DNA of 64,000 bases from Myxococcota bacterium (lineage in GTDB: Bacteria > Myxococcota_A > UBA9160 > UBA4427), in assembly GCA_029243605.1 (NCBI GenBank), contig JAQWRT010000033.1, positions 1,147 through 65,146 on the forward strand, in the 5' to 3' direction. Shown here one piece after another: positions 34,660 to 46,137 of the stretch. The notes under the pieces are model-generated. The model was not told the DNA's origin. It ran no database searches and saw only the letters and a list, made by a program, of their open reading frames with translations. Position numbers and translations under genes: made by a program. Numbering within the stretch: the stretch's first letter is position 1; the number at the start of each line of letters is the position of its first letter.

Positions 34660-35859
34660 CTAGAGAAAATCGGTGAAATCGACTCCGCCGTTGACCCGGA
34701 GAGACTCCACCACGTGGCGAACCACCAGCAAAGCCGATCCATCAACCGTCATGTTGTCGACGATCGGGACGTTATTCCGATCGGCCTGCTCGAGGAGATA
34801 GCGCTGGATCTTCAGGATCTCCTCAAGCCTCTCAACATAGCGAGCCGCGTCCCGGGCTCGTTGCCGGCGTGCCCGAGCTTCGAACTGACTCTCGAAGGCC
34901 TGCTCATCCAGACGGCCCACCATCAGGAAGAAAACGTGGGCGCGGTCCGCGTATTCCTCTAAATCGATCAAGCCGGGCACCAGCGCGACCCCATCGAGCA
35001 CGATGCTCGTATTTTCTTCGATAGCCCGGTCCAGCATCGCGCGAACTCCCACCGACACCGTCGATGCCTGGGAGAGGAATCCGTCGATAACCGGGTCTTC
35101 TTCGCGTCCCAGAGCCGGTAGCTCCCGGTAGGCATCGAAGGAGGAGACGTGGATCGCAGGCATCAGGTCCGGCGAAAGCATGATGCGCATGATATGTCGA
35201 ATAGAATCGGTCGAGAGCATGCGGCTGACACCGAGTCGCTGGGCAACCGCCAAGGCAAGAGAAGTCTTCCCCACCCCCGCAGTCCCGCCCAGGAGAATGA
35301 TGACCGGCTTCTCGGGTTCCTCGAATTTCCGCCAGACGAGATAGCGCTGGGCGACGCGGTTGCCGAAGCGTTCGAGAAGAGCGTCGTAGGCAAACCGACG
35401 AAGCTCGACCTGAGTCACCTCCTCGGTCCCTCGCTGAATCAAGTTGGCCTCGATCACGCGGGCCACCTCAAAAGCATCATCGGGGGCCAGGGATGCGGCC
35501 AACAAGCTCTGGGATAGAGTTCCCTTCGAAAAATGAGTACTGCCGCGGTTCCCCACCACCTGGAGGGTCGCCGGCAACTGAATCGGCTGCTCGCTCTCGG
35601 CCCCCTCGCCGACGATCTCGTGCACAATTTTGGCCAACTCGGCACGTTCCACCCGGCCGCGTCCCTGGATCATGCCCGACACCTGGCCAGCGGTGGAATA
35701 GGCTTCGTCGAAACCGATGCCCCGAGCCATCAGGGAATGAACCATGATGCCGCGCATATAGGGGCGCTCGGCACCGGATTCCTCGACCACCAGAACACGC
35801 GTTCCCGCCCGAGCGGAGTCTTGGCTTCCCGGATCGTTTTTGTTCTTTTTAGCCGACAA
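34660..35859 (-). CDS. 2-phosphoglycerate kinase-like protein with two ATP-cone-like domains
   Basis: PYMRGIMVHSL and FSKGTLSQSL cones; ILLGGTAGVGKT, STDSIR, HVSSF; start uncertain. Confidence 0.8.
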   Translation of the reverse strand: MSAKKNKNDPGSQDSARAGTRVLVVEESGAERPYMRGIMVHSLMARGIGFDEAYSTAGQVSGMIQGRGRVERAELAKIVHEIVGEGAESEQPIQLPATLQVVGNRGSTHFSKGTLSQSLLAASLAPDDAFEVARVIEANLIQRGTEEVTQVELRRFAYDALLERFGNRVAQRYLVWRKFEEPEKPVIILLGGTAGVGKTSLALAVAQRLGVSRMLSTDSIRHIMRIMLSPDLMPAIHVSSFDAYRELPALGREEDPVIDGFLSQASTVSVGVRAMLDRAIEENTSIVLDGVALVPGLIDLEEYADRAHVFFLMVGRLDEQAFESQFEARARRQRARDAARYVERLEEILKIQRYLLEQADRNNVPIVDNMTVDGSALLVVRHVVESLRVNGGVDFTDFL

Positions 35860-36038
35860 AAGACAACACCTCTGAGACACAATGTACGACCCGCGCGGCG
35901 TCAGCGCCGGAGGCCGGGGCGGGCGATCTAAAACGGACGCGACGGCGTGCGGGAAGATCCCGCAGAGTCAATTCAACACGCCAGCTGTCCGGGCGGGCCA
36001 AAAATGGCCGCAAATCCTTCAGAAAGCCTGACAAAGCA

Positions 36039-36097
36039 CTAATTGGCACAAATTAGCTCTTTTTTGGGTTGACTTCTAGGGCAGTAAACCGTTACTT
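36039..36097. promoter_or_regulatory. Promoter region with two dyads in divergent intergenic spacer
   Basis: CTAATT-N6-AATTAG (36039-36056); TTGACT at 36069; AGTAA-ACCG-TTACT (36083-36096). Confidence 0.5.
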
Positions 36098-36239
36098 CGT
36101 TGCCAGAGATCGAAGATCTCCTTGCCGCCAGACCCCCAGCGAGCGAGCCGGAGAACGGAGTGTCGCGATTTTTCTCCCGCACCAGTCCTGGGCATGGGCG
36201 GTTTCCCTTGCCCGGATCTCGGGTTCAGGGGCCAGGCGA

Positions 36240-36800
36240 ATGAGTTCGCCCAGCGCCCATCCACCCCTGGCCGCGCCTTCCGAGGTGCGTCCCCCGACTC
36301 GGCGACCCACTCCGCGGAGCGAGGCCAGCCGATCCGATAGCTCGGAACTCTTCCCTACCCGGGACGTTCTCGAGATCGTCGGAGTCTCCCGCAGGCAACT
36401 CCAGTACTGGTCCCAAACCAATCTGGTGCGTCCATCGCTCCGAACCGTGGGCGGACATCATCGATACAGTTTCGAGGATCTCGTCACCCTCAAGGCGGTT
36501 CGTCGTCTCATCGACGCCGGCATCTCGGTCCAACGCATTCGCAATGGAATCCGGATGCTGCGTGAAGCCTTGAGAAGCGGGTCCCGGCCCCTAGGCGAAC
36601 TCACCCTGATCGCGACCGGCGATCTTGTTCTCGTCCTGCCCGAACAGAGCGACTTCGAAGTCCTCCATGGGCATGAATGGATTTTTCCGATCAGCGAATT
36701 TCGTCGAGAAATCGATGCCCGAGCTGAAGACCATCGCCGCAAATCGAAGGACAAACACACAAGAGGAGGGGCCCCGAATTTTGAACCGAACCCCGTCTAG
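36240..36800 (+). CDS. MerR-family HTH regulator
   Basis: VLEIVGVSRRQLQYW, GGHHRYSFEDL, LIDAGISVQRIR. Confidence 0.9.
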   Translation: MSSPSAHPPLAAPSEVRPPTRRPTPRSEASRSDSSELFPTRDVLEIVGVSRRQLQYWSQTNLVRPSLRTVGGHHRYSFEDLVTLKAVRRLIDAGISVQRIRNGIRMLREALRSGSRPLGELTLIATGDLVLVLPEQSDFEVLHGHEWIFPISEFRREIDARAEDHRRKSKDKHTRGGAPNFEPNPV

Positions 36801-36904
36801 GCACGGAGCCCCACCCATGTCCACAAAGGGAAGCGCGACCAGAAGAAGCTCGCTGGAAAACGTCTCGAATTGCTCGGAAATATTTGGCAACCGGGGGATG
36901 AGCT

Positions 36905-37981
36905 ATGCGGACCATTAGCATCGTCAATCAGAAGGGTGGCTGCGGGAAGACCACGACTACGGTCAGCCTGGCGGGAGCCCTCGCCGGGGACGGTTTTGCC
37001 GTTCTCGTCATCGATATGGATCCCCAGGCCCATGCCAGCATGGCCCTGGGAGTCGATCCAGAAGAGATCGAGGAGAATCTCTACGAGGTCCTGGTCGAAC
37101 CCGATGCCAGCGGTCGCCTGGATGGAGTGGTCGTGAACGCATCCCGGGGAATCGACCTCGCACCCGGGGGCATCGTTCTCTCCGCCCTGGAACAACGACT
37201 CGCCGCCGAAAACCAGGAAGCGCGAACCGAGCGTCTGGCCGCCGCCTTGGGCTCCCTGAGGAGCCAGTACGATTTTGCCCTGATCGATTGCCCCCCGGCG
37301 GTGGGATTGCTCACCTTCAACGCCCTGAGGGCTTCGCAAGAGGTGATCGTCCCGCTGGAAACCAGTTCCTTCGCGATCGACGGGGTTCAGAAACTCCTGG
37401 AAACCCTCGCCCTTCTGATGGAGCGAGTGGGTCACACTCTCTCCGTTCGGGTGTTGCCAAGCCTCTATGACGGGCGGACGCGCTATGCGCGCGAGACCCT
37501 CGGCGAGATACGCGAACTCTTCAAGGAACTCTGCTTCGACTCGGTCGTGCGGCTCAATGTGAAGCTGCGGGAAGCCGCTCGGGAGGGCATGCCGATTTCG
37601 CTCTGGGCCCCCGATTCCAACGGGGCCGCCGACTACGCTTCGGTGGCCATGGAAGTCGCCATGGGACCACCCGCCGAGATCGAGGCCGGGAGCGATACCG
37701 AGACTGAAGCGGCCCGGGAGGTGGTAATCGAATACCGCGATTCCCAAGCCAACGACGTCCGCATTGCGGGTGATTTCAACGGCTGGGTCCCCGACCGGAA
37801 CGTTCTCTCGCGGGTGGAGGCCAGCGGGCGCACCCGAGTCTGGGTCAAGGTCCTCAAACTGCCCCCGGGCGTCTACCAATACCGCTATTTCGTCGATGGC
37901 CAATGGAGAGTGGACCCAGAAAACGAGGAAAGTTCTCCCGGACCCATGGGCCAGACCAACTCCGTTCTCTACGTCCGCTGA
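36905..37981 (+). CDS. ParA/Soj ATPase fused to C-terminal CBM48 (AMPK-beta-type glycogen-binding) domain
   Basis: NQKGGCGKTT, DMDPQ, IDCPP, NVKLREA; then IAGDFNGW...LPPGVYQYRYFVDGQWRVDP...G.TNS. Confidence 0.9.
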   Translation: MRTISIVNQKGGCGKTTTTVSLAGALAGDGFAVLVIDMDPQAHASMALGVDPEEIEENLYEVLVEPDASGRLDGVVVNASRGIDLAPGGIVLSALEQRLAAENQEARTERLAAALGSLRSQYDFALIDCPPAVGLLTFNALRASQEVIVPLETSSFAIDGVQKLLETLALLMERVGHTLSVRVLPSLYDGRTRYARETLGEIRELFKELCFDSVVRLNVKLREAAREGMPISLWAPDSNGAADYASVAMEVAMGPPAEIEAGSDTETEAAREVVIEYRDSQANDVRIAGDFNGWVPDRNVLSRVEASGRTRVWVKVLKLPPGVYQYRYFVDGQWRVDPENEESSPGPMGQTNSVLYVR

Positions 37982-37990
37982 CTCGAAAAT

Positions 37991-38779
37991 ATGGCGCGAA
38001 ACCTCTCAGACGTGCTCCACTATTTTGGTCCCGAGTTGGCCGAAGCCGAGGCCCAGGTGCGGCCGGCCGAGGACGCGCCCCGGGCCGAGGCTCCGGCCTG
38101 CCGGATCATCGGTGTCCCCATTGGCAGCCGGGACGTCGTCCGGGCGGCGTTCGCCTGGAATATCGCGGTGGAGGTGGTCCGGCTCGGAGGTCGAGCAACG
38201 ATCCTCTGCCCGGACGAGACGAGCCCTTCACCGCTCTGGCCCCAGGCCAGCACCGGCCCACTGGGGGTGGCACTGCGCCCGAGCCTGGCCCAAAACCTCG
38301 ACGAACTCCTCGCCAGTGCCCAGGATTGGGCCGCCAACACCGCCCACAAAAGCGAGAGCGACCTTCTCCTCGTCCGAATTCCCCCCGAGTGGATCAGCGC
38401 AGCCGTTGCCCCCTCCCCACTCCTCGATTGGGTCCTCCTCTTCACATCCTCCGAAGAAGCCAACCTCCAGGAAGCCCTCGCGCTCACCCGCAATGTCGTC
38501 GACCGTCACCCCGGGGCAAGGGTCGGCATCACGATTCACGGAGCCCAAAGCCGAGAGGAAGCCGAGACCGCCTTCGGCAACCTGGCCCGGGCCTCGCGCG
38601 AGAAAACAGGGCGTGATGTCCGCAGCTACGGCCTGCTGGTCGACGATCTCGATGTCTACCGAGCGATCGTCGCCCAACGCCCCATCGGCCTAGCCCATCC
38701 ACAGTCTCCAGCCGCGCGTGCCCTCCGCGATGTCGCCGAACTTCTACTCGGGGACATCGAGGAAGACGCCCGTGGTTGA
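37991..38779 (+). CDS. Degenerate MinD/FlhG-like protein lacking Walker A
   Basis: AWNIAVEVVRLGGRATIL; C-terminal YGLLVDDLDVYRAIVAQRP..HPQSPAARAL; no GKT/S. Confidence 0.65.
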   Translation: MARNLSDVLHYFGPELAEAEAQVRPAEDAPRAEAPACRIIGVPIGSRDVVRAAFAWNIAVEVVRLGGRATILCPDETSPSPLWPQASTGPLGVALRPSLAQNLDELLASAQDWAANTAHKSESDLLLVRIPPEWISAAVAPSPLLDWVLLFTSSEEANLQEALALTRNVVDRHPGARVGITIHGAQSREEAETAFGNLARASREKTGRDVRSYGLLVDDLDVYRAIVAQRPIGLAHPQSPAARALRDVAELLLGDIEEDARG

Positions 38780-39383
38780 ATTCGCAAGAATCCCGCCGGG
38801 TTCGGCCAAGGCCATCCGGGCCGAGGCTCGCGAGCAATTGGGACAGCTGGGCCAAGGGCTCCGGGTCATCGCCGAGGACGTGATGGGCCTCACCTCCTCC
38901 ATCGATCTGCTCGCCGTAGACCCAGACGGGGGCCTGGTGGCCATACTCATCGCCAGTGAGCCCGACCAGGAGCCCGCCCTGCTCGGCCGGGGGATCGCGC
39001 ACAGGGCATGGGCCGACCAGCGGGCCAAGGATTGGTGCACCCTCGCCCCGGAACTCGCCATCGCATGGGATCGGCCCGCGCGCTGCATCCTCCTGGCCCC
39101 AGATTTTGGAGAGGAGACCCGGCTGGCGGCCCGCACCCTGGGCTCGGACACCGTCCTCCTGGTCCGCTATCTCGCCCTGCGCGCCGGAAAGGAGACCGGG
39201 CTGCTCCTCGAACCCCTGGCACACTTGCCCGAGCCCGGGAGGGCGGCCCCATCGGAGCCGACGATCAAGCCCCTCCCCCGGTCCCCGACCCAGGAAATGG
39301 ACCCACTGCCCGAGTTTCGCAGCAAGCTCGCCGATCGCGACCTACGCACCCAGAGGGCCCCTACGCCTCTCCCTGCGGGGTAA
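38772..39383 (+). CDS. NucS/PD-(D/E)xK-fold-like protein, apparently inactive
   Basis: IDLLAVDPDGGLVAIL lacks ExK; RCILLAPDF; overlaps upstream gene. Confidence 0.55.
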   Translation: MVEFARIPPGSAKAIRAEAREQLGQLGQGLRVIAEDVMGLTSSIDLLAVDPDGGLVAILIASEPDQEPALLGRGIAHRAWADQRAKDWCTLAPELAIAWDRPARCILLAPDFGEETRLAARTLGSDTVLLVRYLALRAGKETGLLLEPLAHLPEPGRAAPSEPTIKPLPRSPTQEMDPLPEFRSKLADRDLRTQRAPTPLPAG

Positions 39384-39553
39384 TTAACCCAGCTCACGCG
39401 ACCCGGGGATCTTGAGAGATTTTTCGGGGTTTTCCACATATTTTTGACACCTCCGAGACTATCCCGGCCACATCACTAGGAGAGGAACTGCGCCGCTCAG
39501 GCAATGCAGGGAATCCACTGGGAACTGAATCTGGGAATTCAGGGGGATATGGC

Positions 39554-40210
39554 ATGCGAAATCCGGAAAATGAAGGAATAGGAACCGGGAGAGCGACTGG
39601 GACGGCAAAAACTCTCGCCGGTCACCCGCACCGCGGCGCTCCCGCAACGCATTCGAGGGCCGACTCGCCCGACGAAATCAGTGATCGCGAGATCATCGAC
39701 CGCGTGAGCAAGGGCGATCGCGAAGCGTTTGAGCTTCTCTACGAGCGCTATTTCACCCGTATCTACCGCTTTATCGCGCGTCGCATGGGCGTCCGCGCAG
39801 ACGTCGAGGAGACCACCCAAGAGGTCTTCATCGCGGTCTTTTCGAGTCTCGATTCTTTTCGCGGCGAGGCTCCGTTTTCCGCCTGGATCTACGGCGTAAC
39901 CCGACGAGTCATCGCGAGTCGCTTCAAGCGCAAGCGCCACCCCATGGTGCCGCTGCTCGAAGAAGACTCCGAAAGCAACACCGCACACGCCAGCACGCGA
40001 CCAACCCCCCTCGAAGAGTACGAATGCCAGGAGCGCATCGAAGAACTGACGGCGGCGGCTGAAAAATTGAGCGATGAACAAAAGGAACTCTTCCGCCTGC
40101 ATCACATCGACGACCACTCCATCAGCGAGATCGCGATCCGCATGAGCAAGAGCGAGGACGCGGTCAAGTCGAACCTCTACCGCGCACGAAAGGTTCTGCT
40201 CCCGCGCTGA
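39554..40210 (+). CDS. ECF sigma-70 factor
   Basis: GDREAFELLYERY, QEVF, FSAWIY, SISEIA...VKSNLYRAR. Confidence 0.93.
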   Translation: MRNPENEGIGTGRATGTAKTLAGHPHRGAPATHSRADSPDEISDREIIDRVSKGDREAFELLYERYFTRIYRFIARRMGVRADVEETTQEVFIAVFSSLDSFRGEAPFSAWIYGVTRRVIASRFKRKRHPMVPLLEEDSESNTAHASTRPTPLEEYECQERIEELTAAAEKLSDEQKELFRLHHIDDHSISEIAIRMSKSEDAVKSNLYRARKVLLPR

Positions 40211-40315: not shown

Positions 40316-40921
40316 ATGTCTTCTCCCAAGCCTCCCACGCCCCCAAGTCGAGCGCCGCTCTCCACCGCCTTGATCGCCCTGGTAGGCTCCGAAGCCCAGG
40401 GCAGTAGCCAGCGCCTGGAATTCACGGCCCGGGGTGAGCGGGTGCCCGCGCGCTGGCTCCGCCCTATCGCTCAGGCCGGTAGCCCCCTGCCCCTGGCGAT
40501 CGTCGTTCACGACGAGAGCGAGACGACTCACCAACCCACCCTGGCGGGCTACCACGCCGAGGCCGTGGCCACCCTGGACATGAACTGGCCGCTGACCGGA
40601 TCGCGACGCAGTCCAAAGATGAGCCTCCGCCTACTGGAGGCCCTCGCGTCGCCGGGGGAGAGTCCGGTGCACAAACTCCTGCTCGAACAATTCCGCGCCC
40701 AGGCTCTGGAGGAGTTCGCCTGCCTTCTCGAATCCGCTCAGAGCCTGGCGGTTTCAGAGATCAGACACGTTGATTTCATCCTGGCCCCCGCGCGAGAGCG
40801 AAACCCGGACGCGGCCCAGCCCCTCTTCGCCCGCCTCTCGGAGCCCAGGCATTCCCAGGGGATTTCTGCCGCAGCAGCGCCCGAGAGGCTCCGGGATTTC
40901 CTCGACGATTTGCTCCCCTGA
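40316..40921 (+). CDS. Hypothetical protein (partial alpha/beta-hydrolase-like)
   Basis: RLEFTARGERVPA, PLAIVVH, WPLTGSRRSPK. Confidence 0.55.
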   Translation: MSSPKPPTPPSRAPLSTALIALVGSEAQGSSQRLEFTARGERVPARWLRPIAQAGSPLPLAIVVHDESETTHQPTLAGYHAEAVATLDMNWPLTGSRRSPKMSLRLLEALASPGESPVHKLLLEQFRAQALEEFACLLESAQSLAVSEIRHVDFILAPARERNPDAAQPLFARLSEPRHSQGISAAAAPERLRDFLDDLLP

Positions 40922-43769: not shown

Positions 43770-44702
43770 TCACTCGGTTTCGAGGACTTCGGCGGAGGAG
43801 TCCAGGCTCAACGCGAAGCGAGCCGCCTCGGCGGAGGGTCGCGAGAAAATCGCCTGAATCGCGATCGCTTCGCCCGCGCCAATTTCGAGAACACCGAGCG
43901 CCTGGGAGGCACGCTCTTGGGCCGCTTCGAGGGCCTTCGGCGGCAACTCCCGGACTTCGCTCTCTCGAATACGCAGGCCCATGAGCGCCGCTGGAGAGGC
44001 CAAGCGACGGCCTTCGGAATCCTCGAGGGAGACTCGAATCCGGGCGCCCAAGCTCTCGGACTGGGCCGAGGGGTTGCGAAGTTCACCGGTGACCGCGAGC
44101 AGGGTTCTTCCCGACATCGTGTCCACCCATTCGGCGTGGAGTCCTTCCGCTCGCAACCCACCGAGCGCGAATGTTGGCTGCGCCGCTCCCACAGAATCCG
44201 CGGTTTCTCGCACGAAGCTGAAAGCGATGAGGGCGATCATTCCGAGGGTGGCTGCCCAACCCAGGGTCCGCCCCAGGGTGCCCAGCCAGGCGCGAACCCG
44301 AACCGATTCCGAAGTGGGTGCCGAGCGGGCACGATGGGCGCCCGCCGGCACAGATTCCAGGGCAATGGCGCCGATGGCCACCTTGGCATCCGAATCCGTG
44401 GCCGAACCGGCGACCGGCCGCCTCTGGGAACTCGAGGGGCCGTGGCCCTGGGCTGGGGGGGGGTCGGCCTCCACCTCATCCGCGCCCCCCAGAAATTCGG
44501 CTCCTAGATCCGAGAAATCATCCTCGCCGGCGGAGGGGATCTCGACCCGCTCCTGCTCGGGGGCTGAGGGCGCCGACGCCGAAGGCGCATCGACCTGAAA
44601 AACGTGCTCGCATGCGGAGCAACGCACGCGAACCCCGTCTTCGGGCACACGAGAATCGTCGAGTTGAAAGCGCGTCTCGCAATTCTGGCAGGTGACGATC
44701 AA
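43770..44702 (-). CDS. MJ0042-type zinc-ribbon membrane protein (DUF3426-like)
   Basis: IVTCQNCETRF...VRCSACEHVF, linker, TM, VTGELRN domain. Confidence 0.85.
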   Translation of the reverse strand: MIVTCQNCETRFQLDDSRVPEDGVRVRCSACEHVFQVDAPSASAPSAPEQERVEIPSAGEDDFSDLGAEFLGGADEVEADPPPAQGHGPSSSQRRPVAGSATDSDAKVAIGAIALESVPAGAHRARSAPTSESVRVRAWLGTLGRTLGWAATLGMIALIAFSFVRETADSVGAAQPTFALGGLRAEGLHAEWVDTMSGRTLLAVTGELRNPSAQSESLGARIRVSLEDSEGRRLASPAALMGLRIRESEVRELPPKALEAAQERASQALGVLEIGAGEAIAIQAIFSRPSAEAARFALSLDSSAEVLETE

Positions 44703-45328: not shown

Positions 45329-45498
45329 GACCGGCGAAGACCCCGGTCTCAGGCCCGCAGCCGAATCGCCCTGAAACTCGCGTGTCGAACCCGTAGAGGC
45401 GCCTGGCGCCGCGCTCCCTGAGCCTCCCGTGTGCTAGGGTGCCGCTCGCCCCGCAGACTCCTCCCGGGCCATTCCCCTCAACCATGAGCGAGCCGACG

Positions 45499-46137
45499 AT
45501 GGCGATCCTGATCAAGCGCTATGCGAACCGGAAGCTCTACAACACCCAGAGCAGCCGCTACATCACGCTGAAGGGAATCGCCGAACTTCTCGATGCCGGC
45601 GAGGAAGTCCGGGTCATCGACAAGCAGACCGGGGAAGACATCACCTCGGTGGCGCTCTCCCAGATCCTAGTCGATAGCAAGCGCTCGAATACCCAACCCC
45701 CGGACACCCTCCTGACCCAGATCCTGGGGCGCGGGGGCGACGCCCTCTACGACGCCCTGCGCAAGGGCGTCGACGATGCCAGCGAGGGCATCGGCGATCT
45801 GCAAGAACGCATGCGGCGCATGGTAGGCACCAGCGATGAGGCCCAGGCTTCGCCGGACGAGGACGATGAGTTCGAAGCGGACGAGGCCGCAGAACCCCAG
45901 GCCTCGACGAAAAAACAGGGCTTCTTCCAGGCGCCCCCGGAATTGGATGATCTCGTCCAGAACGCGGTGGAGCGCGTCTTCCGGCTCCTCGACCTTCCTC
46001 GCCGATCGGATGTCGAATCCCTCAACCAGAACCTCGAACGGGTGGCCGGCGCCGTCGAAGCCCTCGAAGAGGCCTTCGCCGAACGGACCGGCGGCGAAAG
46101 CGATGACGAGACCGAGGACTCCGAAGAATCTCCCTAA
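45499..46137 (+). CDS. PhaR-like polyhydroxyalkanoate regulator with phasin-like C-terminus
   Basis: IKRYANRKLYNTQSSRYITL...TGEDIT; C-terminal LDLPRRSDVESLNQNLERV. Confidence 0.85.
   Translation: MAILIKRYANRKLYNTQSSRYITLKGIAELLDAGEEVRVIDKQTGEDITSVALSQILVDSKRSNTQPPDTLLTQILGRGGDALYDALRKGVDDASEGIGDLQERMRRMVGTSDEAQASPDEDDEFEADEAAEPQASTKKQGFFQAPPELDDLVQNAVERVFRLLDLPRRSDVESLNQNLERVAGAVEALEEAFAERTGGESDDETEDSEESP

Follow-up and report, generated by a model that had tools for sequence, protein, structure and literature searches.

In the order of Myxococcota examined here, a gene encoding a ParA-type ATPase fused to a carbohydrate-binding module (CBM), which we call ParA-CBM, leads a tight operon that is retained both in genomes with glycogen genes and in genomes without them. 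The gene lies at 36905-37981 of a 64,000-nucleotide stretch of DNA, hereafter the window (GenBank assembly GCA_029243605.1, contig JAQWRT010000033.1, positions 1,147 to 65,146 of the forward strand; GTDB lineage Bacteria; Myxococcota_A; UBA9160; UBA4427). As predicted from gene packing, the operon consists of the ATPase-CBM fusion, a paralogue without a P-loop (orf262) and a NucS-like protein (orf221). Within the order it behaves as a vertically inherited, single-copy and slowly evolving unit, not like a mobile defence island. Our overall reading, held with middling confidence, is that the operon is a vertically inherited core set in which a Soj-like switch bears a CBM head with a ligand other than glycogen.

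The ParA-CBM open reading frame (ORF; + strand) is open from ATG to TGA and encodes 358 amino acids. Its ParA/Soj-type ATPase domain (36905..37669, + strand, residues 1-255) carries the deviant Walker A motif KGGCGKT (KGGCGKTT, residues 10-17), the DxDPQ motif (DPQ, residues 39-41) and the Walker B motif DCPP (residues 128-131). The Pfam models AAA_31 (residues 1-180, E 4.6e-47, 160.7 bits against a cut-off of 27) and CbiA (E 4.8e-21, 75.5 bits against 25.4) both matched. The motif, together with family hidden Markov models (HMMs) above their curated cut-offs, places the protein among the ParA/MinD ATPases with a deviant Walker A. The nearest solved chains to this part were a ParA family protein (8ray, E 1.5e-41) and Helicobacter pylori Soj (6iub, E 2.3e-36), and Thermus thermophilus Soj also aligned with it end to end. 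Residues K10, G11, G12, K15, T16, D37, D39 and D128 were invariant in 21 of 21 diverse family members (alignment A2). The domain is followed by an acidic linker (37670..37717, + strand, residues 256-271) whose 16 residues vary in both length and sequence. Its columns in alignment A2 were gapped and unconserved, and used alone as a tblastn query it matched one of 80 related loci. These loci, from named Myxococcota metagenome-assembled genomes (MAGs), also formed our synteny sample, which was read by tblastn. The AMPK-beta-type CBM48 domain occupies the remainder (37718..37981 with the stop codon, + strand, residues 272-358), and because it forms the end of the protein, ParA-CBM is without a C-terminal amphipathic helix.

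The closest solved relatives are Soj/ParA proteins and the database name given by JGI is 'chromosome partitioning protein', both of which would suit a plain chromosome or plasmid partition ATPase. However, no parB was found among the neighbours of the gene (a MerR-type gene, the pseudo-ParA gene and the NucS-like gene), and an adjacent partner of the parB or parG/ribbon-helix-helix kind that marks ParABS partition loci is thus missing. A canonical soj-parB pair is located elsewhere in the same genome, on contig C71 (ParB 160.6 bits), the NCBIfam partition models all scored far under their cut-offs on ParA-CBM, and the contig context is one of chromosomal housekeeping genes. We consider a partition role extremely improbable. 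ParA-CBM is an orphan ParA-type ATPase with its catalytic motifs intact.

The C-terminal domain contains AGDFNGW (residues 288-294), PPGVYQYRYFVDGQW (residues 320-334), DP (residues 337-338) and GQTN (residues 349-352). AMPK1_CBM (PF16561) matched residues 273-357 (E 4.7e-13, 49.6 bits against a cut-off of 26.8), and CBM_48 (PF02922) scored 21.6 bits, slightly below its cut-off of 22.4. With phmmer, the last 97 residues matched the AMPK beta2 CBM 2f15 (E 8.5e-10) with the contact residues aligned: FNGW, YRYFVDGQW and GQTNS of ParA-CBM fell on FNNW, YKFFVDGQW and GTINN. An AlphaFold2 (AF2) model of residues 262-358, folded with 38 sequences, is a confident beta-sandwich (predicted local distance difference test score, pLDDT, 90.6). 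The top Foldseek match of this model was the AMPK beta1 glycogen-binding domain 1z0m_B (E 3.3e-7, template modelling (TM) score by target 0.79), and 4yee_A matched with a TM score of 0.80; the best matches were glycogen-binding domains of AMPK beta1 and beta2, some of them cyclodextrin-bound. The domain therefore has the gathering score, the predicted fold and the sugar-contact residues expected of the CBM48/AMPK1_CBM family. In AMPK beta1 numbering, the positions kept in the CBM head are W100, K126 and W133, with K126 replaced by Arg; N150 and L146 are sugar-contact positions as well. The corresponding residues W294, R327, W334 and N352 were invariant in all 21 members of alignment A2. According to one study, W100G and K126Q abolish glycogen binding by AMPK beta1 and W133L weakens it (PMC6274970).

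By this pattern of invariance, the ligand-binding face of the CBM head appears to be under strong purifying selection, and both halves of ParA-CBM look functional, since the catalytic and the ligand-face residues are alike invariant. The observed architecture is far beyond chance. The sequence-only reading of this gene had described an intact Soj-like ATPase, an acidic linker, CBM48/AMPK-beta motifs and the lack of an adjacent parB, and had proposed an HMM scan for both domains. All of these descriptions held: every motif could be read in the translation, AAA_31 and AMPK1_CBM both exceeded their cut-offs within one ORF, and the nearest structure to the CBM model was 1z0m.

Used alone in a word-indexed homologue search, the CBM part gave 147 matches among 172 candidates, only from the same Myxococcota family, so that other architectures were not in view. 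An exhaustive search of representative proteins was dominated by tandem-repeat proteins, many of them about 470-700 amino acids long and made of four to six AMPK1_CBM repeats and little else (e.g., P0235, P0223 and P0225). No ParA domain was found in the 10 proteins scanned of the 150 matches listed by this search; these had AMPK1_CBM alone or with unrelated domains.

The two downstream genes are packed closely behind ParA-CBM: 9 nt separate it from the second gene, which overlaps the third, at its probable start, by 8 nt. The second gene, orf262 (37991..38779, + strand, 262 amino acids), starts 9 nt past the ParA-CBM stop codon and encodes a degenerate protein of the FlhG/MinD/ParA fold without a P-loop. 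A profile of 32 orthologues matched FlhG 4rz2 (E 9.5e-12), FleN and archaeal MinD over the C-terminal half. At the Walker A position the sequence is GERDVVRAA, not GKGGVGKS, and this replacement makes nucleotide binding by orf262 unlikely. The N-terminal peptide of 15 residues, MPRDLxDVLHYFLPE, hardly varies among the 32 orthologues. NCBIfam assigned no family to it (single match, E 0.007). A complex prediction for ParA-CBM (A2) with orf262 (A1) scored 0.00 against a mark of 0.32, which speaks neither for nor against binding.

The third gene, orf221 (38772..39383, + strand), most probably starts at GTG 38772 with an 8-nt overlap with the upstream stop codon, although the longest ORF runs from 38718. 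Its product is predicted to have a NucS-like PD-(D/E)XK fold. Foldseek ranked NucS 2vld (E 1.8e-5) and EndoMS 5gke (E 1.2e-4) best for its AF2 model (pLDDT 86.4), with TM scores of only 0.33-0.40, and an Atlas search agreed with this comparison by giving NucS_C as a lead. No significant match came from a profile search of the PDB sequences (lowest E 0.22), and NCBIfam returned no family. The alignment of 32 sequences has an invariant Asp and no conserved E-x-K, and the protein is probably inactive as a nuclease. After a variable linker it carries a conserved C-terminal motif, FRSGLxDxDLGLTxEE. A terminator-like hairpin follows the third gene (39405..39434, + strand; a consensus match only); the scan of this region gave 5 terminator-like sites, where chance alone predicts 4.6, and no promoter-like sites, so that the hairpin carries no weight by itself. 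Contigs from marine RNA libraries (4 runs, 2 studies) matched parts of 36322-39500 with 0-1 mismatches. One of them spans the ParA-CBM/orf262 junction (37900-38072) and another the orf262/orf221 junction (38682-38832). These are short Logan contigs of depth 2-5 that leave most of the ATPase gene uncovered and may include DNA carry-over, and they give a weak hint of co-transcription of the three genes.

The fusion is nearly universal in the order. Exactly one AMPK1_CBM match was present in 51 of the 61 order genomes and in each of five genomes from a sister family in the sister order, for which the four loci fetched were full-length fusions. In a sample of 201 genomes from the phylum, 143 had some AMPK1_CBM match, and fusion-sized matches occurred in the class of the window. 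None of five out-of-class AMPK1_CBM loci, picked for their open frames of 334-383 amino acids among many out-of-class matches, had a ParA fusion by tblastn (the ORFs of L108 were also read). ParA-CBM occupies a constant position, flanked by rlmN/trmB, a 2-phosphoglycerate-kinase-like gene and pgm. In the 80 synteny loci, orf262 was detected 77 times, orf221 71 times, the MerR-type gene 69 times, the kinase-like gene 70 times, an ECF (extracytoplasmic function) sigma factor gene 68 times and pgm 54 times. The four sister-order loci (54-57% identity) kept the kinase-like gene and pgm, and the pseudo-ATPase was detected in one of them by tblastn.

ParA-CBM evolves as slowly as rlmN and pgm. Relative to the query, the related loci had a median identity of 64.9% for ParA-CBM, 64.7% for RlmN, 69.8% for PGM and 54.1% for TrmB, compared with 54.4% for the ECF sigma factor, 45.2% for orf262 and 37.5% for orf221; within ParA-CBM, it was 63.2% for the CBM and 69.7% for the ATPase. 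Mantel tests on pairwise distances showed that ParA-CBM correlates with RlmN (r 0.92, 22 loci) and with PGM (r 0.67, 37 loci); in neither test did any of 999 permutations reach the observed value. Both tests used loci with at least 85% coverage of the second gene of the pair. The mean pairwise distance was 0.31-0.32 for ParA-CBM and 0.31 for PGM, and 0.54 and 0.59 for orf262 and orf221, respectively.

A computational description of a 'ParA-CBM' system (clade ConB5), in which ParA is fused to AMPK1_CBM, was posted on 22 October 2026 (bioRxiv 10.64898/2026.10.19.760177). In this preprint, variant 2 consists of ParA-CBM, a faster-evolving second ParA that is predicted to be inactive and a restriction endonuclease (REase) that is also predicted to be inactive. 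The three-gene unit in the window, by its predicted architecture, is a member of this system and of variant 2: it has a C-terminal AMPK1_CBM on ParA, followed by an inactive-looking ParA and an inactive-looking REase fold, with inactivity deduced from the loss of Walker A in orf262 and the absence of a conserved E-x-K in orf221. The sequence-only reading knew of no characterised system of this kind. That statement stands for experimentally characterised systems in the literature searched; it does not stand for the architecture and its three-gene variant, which the preprint already describes.

From a survey across phyla, the preprint authors propose an immune role and report a sporadic distribution and a rapidly diverging CBM (10.64898/2026.10.19.760177). 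In such an anti-phage or anti-mobile-element system, a CBM lectin would sense an infection-linked carbohydrate, multimerised ParA would be the effector, and further sensing would come from the inactive ParA and REase. The variant 2 architecture and the fast evolution of orf262 and orf221 relative to ParA-CBM agree with this proposal, and a non-glycogen carbohydrate ligand would suit the missing glycogen genes described below. However, in the Myxococcota order the distribution is not sporadic (51 of 61 genomes, single-copy) and the CBM is not fast, its median identity of 63.2% standing near the 69.7% of the ATPase and its contact residues being invariant. The gene keeps one fixed housekeeping locus, and its rate equals, and its divergence tracks, those of RlmN and PGM. 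PADLOC-DB 2.0 (2023, before the preprint) gave only weak partial matches, to PDC-M28B (21.9 bits, P-loop) and mad1 (27.4 bits, helix-turn-helix, HTH), and none for orf262 or orf221; no phage or defence genes were noticed in the scanned neighbourhood. The unit here further differs from the preprint's system in its usual MerR-type upstream gene; the term 'MerR' is absent from the main text of the preprint (10.64898/2026.10.19.760177). A vertical cellular role fits the single-copy state, the fixed housekeeping synteny and the slow rate better than defence does, and we regard an immune role in this clade as unlikely.

The sequence-only reading had named glycogen as the cargo, so that the CBM would tether alpha-glucan granules to a nucleoid-bound ATPase and space or segregate them as McdAB does for carboxysomes. 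The CBM48 fold, with equivalents of AMPK beta1 W100, K126 (as Arg), W133 and N150, agrees with such a role, as do the orphan state of the ATPase, a phosphoglucomutase/phosphomannomutase gene nearby in 54 of 80 loci and the occurrence of GlgA in 17 of the 51 carriers. However, the genome of the window (4.44 Mb, 97 contigs, 92.9% complete) had no match to the GH13 alpha-amylase family, the GT35 phosphorylase family or GH77 in HMM searches. The best scores for GlgA (47.5 bits against a cut-off of 328, on a generic GT-B C-terminal half only), GlgC (22 bits against 425) and GH57 (19.4 bits against 21.2) were all under their cut-offs. Each search recovered its positive controls, in 8 to 14 of the 14 reference genomes. 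The ParA-CBM gene was the sole AMPK1_CBM match in this genome.

The same pattern was seen across the order sample (61 genomes, evenly drawn; GT35 counted at E <= 1e-10 and GlgA at E <= 1e-30). GH13 was absent from 13 of the 51 carriers, GT35 from 25, GlgA from 34 and all three from 12. These counts were tallied by hand from four tables and ignore kinship between genomes. All genomes are MAGs and the absences rest on HMM searches; completeness is 91-97% for the 12 all-negative carriers, among them a 2-contig assembly at 95%. In the window's own family, 9 of 9 sampled genomes were without GT35 and GlgA. The 10 non-carriers had GH13 in 9 cases, GT35 in 5 and GlgA in 2, compared with 38, 26 and 17 (about a third) of the 51 carriers. 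Carriage is thus not enriched with glycogen genes, because non-carriers hold GH13 and GT35 as often or oftener. Several carriers without GlgA or GT35 have a single full-length GH13 gene (a frame of about 520-670 amino acids), which may encode TreS, an alpha-glucosidase or another enzyme. One carrier, G025, has an odd partial glycogen gene set, with GlgA at 498.7 bits yet no GH13 or GT35 match.

Carriers that lack glycogen genes show no erosion of the sugar-contact residues. In 21 genomes, comprising that of the window, the 11 other all-negative carriers and 9 carriers with both GlgA and GT35, the residues W294, R327 and W334 were kept in 21 and N352 in 20; the only exception was an Ile in the 2-contig genome. 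Conversely, two non-carriers with many GH13 and GT35 genes, G015 and G030, encode an ATPase orthologue that shares 65-68% identity (over residues 1-262 and 1-256), ends soon after the ATPase domain and has lost the CBM (L135, G015:C15, 1231-2340; L136, G030:C43, 1420-2862, - strand). The gene for the P-loop-less ParA-fold protein is still next to it. Three other non-carriers had only a Soj-like protein with 36-37% identity.

Glycogen granules are very unlikely to be the conserved cargo, because carriers without glycogen genes keep the ligand face and glycogen-rich relatives have lost the CBM; as an account of the operon in general, the granule proposal has little probability left. The co-occurrence comparison proposed in the sequence-only reading thus went against glycogen, the fusion being common in genomes without glycogen synthesis. 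The idea of a built-in cargo adaptor survives in part. A fused ligand or cargo head is a fair reading of an orphan ParA that carries a CBM48 with glycogen-contact equivalents, but glycogen as the named cargo is not. A PhaR-like protein is encoded at 45439-46137 of the window (+ strand); it scores 72.4 bits with TIGR01848, short of the threshold of 109, and its C-terminus weakly resembles a phasin. This is a hint that the organism may store polyhydroxyalkanoate in place of glycogen.

Retention of the CBM in genomes without glycogen genes could also mean that the domain no longer binds sugar and docks a partner from the operon, for example the FRSGLxDxDLGL motif of orf221 or the N-terminal peptide of the pseudo-ATPase. 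Both downstream proteins have conserved short terminal motifs and the genes are tightly coupled, which agrees with this proposal. However, invariance falls on precisely those residues that stack against sugar, and two lineages lost the CBM yet keep the pseudo-ATPase, which is therefore independent of the CBM. We find protein docking hardly more probable than glycogen granules.

Returning to the reading of a core set with a non-glycogen ligand, the following mechanism is conceivable. ATP-bound ParA-CBM would dimerise and sit on the nucleoid as Soj/ParA proteins do. The co-transcribed pseudo-ATPase would control the ATPase cycle, plausibly through its invariant Arg-bearing N-terminal peptide, and the flexible linker would let the CBM head hold or sense its ligand. 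In the organism of the window this ligand would not be storage glycogen from any recognised pathway; it may be another glucan-like carbohydrate or a glycoconjugate, or a non-sugar partner on the same face. These steps follow rules reported for ParA/MinD proteins in PMC11407121, namely ATP-bound sandwich dimers, N-terminal peptides of partner proteins and C-terminal matrix binding.

Several points weigh against this reading. Binding of ParA-CBM to the nucleoid is suggested by alignment to Soj-type ParAs, in which we take a basic residue at the NV(K/R)L position to be important. AMPK binds alpha-1,4-glucan with the very face that is conserved here, and a glucan-like ligand thus remains indicated. 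That glycogen genes are missing was deduced by HMM searches of MAGs that are 91-97% complete, and an unrecognised glucan pathway is possible. By tblastn, the MerR-type and NucS-like genes were found in none of the four sister-order loci, and the conserved core may therefore be smaller than four genes. In the literature searched, outside of which most subscription journals lie, there was no experimentally characterised ParA-CBM or glycogen-positioning ParA. Finally, the fast evolution of the pseudo-ATPase and REase-like genes is a trait that the preprint notes for immune systems, and its authors, looking across phyla, read ParA-CBM as defence (10.64898/2026.10.19.760177).

A more specific form of the core-set reading, which we put forward only tentatively and rate somewhat above the immune role, is that the operon is a core cell-organisation module. 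Its AMPK-beta-like sugar pocket would read or hold a non-glycogen cytoplasmic carbohydrate, coupling the status of carbon or envelope precursors to a nucleoid-bound ATP switch. If true, it would be a bacterial counterpart of AMPK glycan sensing on a ParA chassis, regulated by a pseudo-ATPase, and neither a granule-partition nor a defence system.

The genes around the operon were also annotated. The MerR-type HTH protein (36069..36800, + strand; MerR_1 E 7.4e-14 in Pfam), whose longest ORF has 243 amino acids and an uncertain start, is encoded upstream of ParA-CBM in the same direction. Its HTH (residues 98-159) is followed by a C-terminal region of about 80 amino acids without a family match, and NCBIfam gave sub-threshold HTH matches only (TnrA, HspR, FtsR, RacA and BldC types). 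Divergent from these two genes lies the gene of the ATP-cone and P-loop protein that resembles 2-phosphoglycerate kinase (34660-35880, - strand; NF003259 307 bits, under the cut-off of 343). It adjoined them in 70 of the 80 synteny loci and in all four sister-order loci, an association conserved further than that of the MerR-type or NucS-like gene, which may reflect a functional link or conserved gene order. Downstream of the operon, the ECF sigma factor gene (39554-40210, + strand; Sigma70_r2 and Sigma70_r4_2) follows in 68 of 80 loci, and a gene for a 201-amino-acid protein without a family match (40316-40921, + strand) comes after it in 39 of 80; the two could be a sigma/anti-sigma pair. 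An MJ0042-type zinc-ribbon protein (43770-44702, - strand; E 9.1e-12) shows a weak match to the N-terminus of the gliding motility protein GltJ. Sister-order loci have a homologue of this zinc-ribbon gene too, next to a second and distant ParA-like gene (27-30% identity).

ParA/MinD ATPases ordinarily reach their cargo through separate adaptor proteins. With a ligand head fused to ParA, what an orphan ParA positions becomes testable with a single purified domain, and the ligand, once identified, would reveal a novel cytoplasmic glycan or else a novel use of the CBM48 fold. The carriers are widespread, uncultured and mostly marine Myxococcota, and for this clade the predictions of the glycogen-granule and immune proposals both misfit the comparative data.

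The AMPK beta CBM48 domains (1z0m, 2f15 and 4yee) have the same fold as the predicted head (TM 0.74-0.80 by target, 32-33% identity) and the Trp/basic/Trp/Asn set is kept; unlike AMPK beta, ParA-CBM has Arg in place of Lys126, joins the domain to a P-loop ATPase and not a kinase scaffold, and occurs in genomes without glycogen enzymes. The chromosomal Soj/ParA proteins of T. thermophilus (1wcv/2bek) and H. pylori (6iub) align with the ATPase end to end (E 1e-32 to 1e-36), including DxDPQ and NV(K/R)L, whereas ParA-CBM has no ParB partner, has an extra C-terminal domain, and coexists with a separate soj-parB pair. The C-terminal half of orf262 aligns to FlhG residues 162-267 (E 9.5e-12) within the FlhG/FleN/MinD group (4rz2, 5j1j and 1hyq), from which it differs by GERDVVRAA at Walker A and by its distinct conserved N-terminal peptide. 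Like McdA-McdB, PomXYZ, ParC-ParP and FlhG, as described in PMC11407121, ParA-CBM is an orphan deviant-Walker-A ATPase apart from the chromosomal parAB, and it shares with McdA-McdB-type systems a likely partner protein with a conserved N-terminal peptide, here orf262; its ATPase matches McdA 6noo with E 2.1e-14. However, in McdA-McdB-type systems a separate adaptor links the cargo, whereas ParA-CBM carries its putative ligand-binding domain in one chain with the ATPase and has a degenerate ParA-fold protein as its likely partner.

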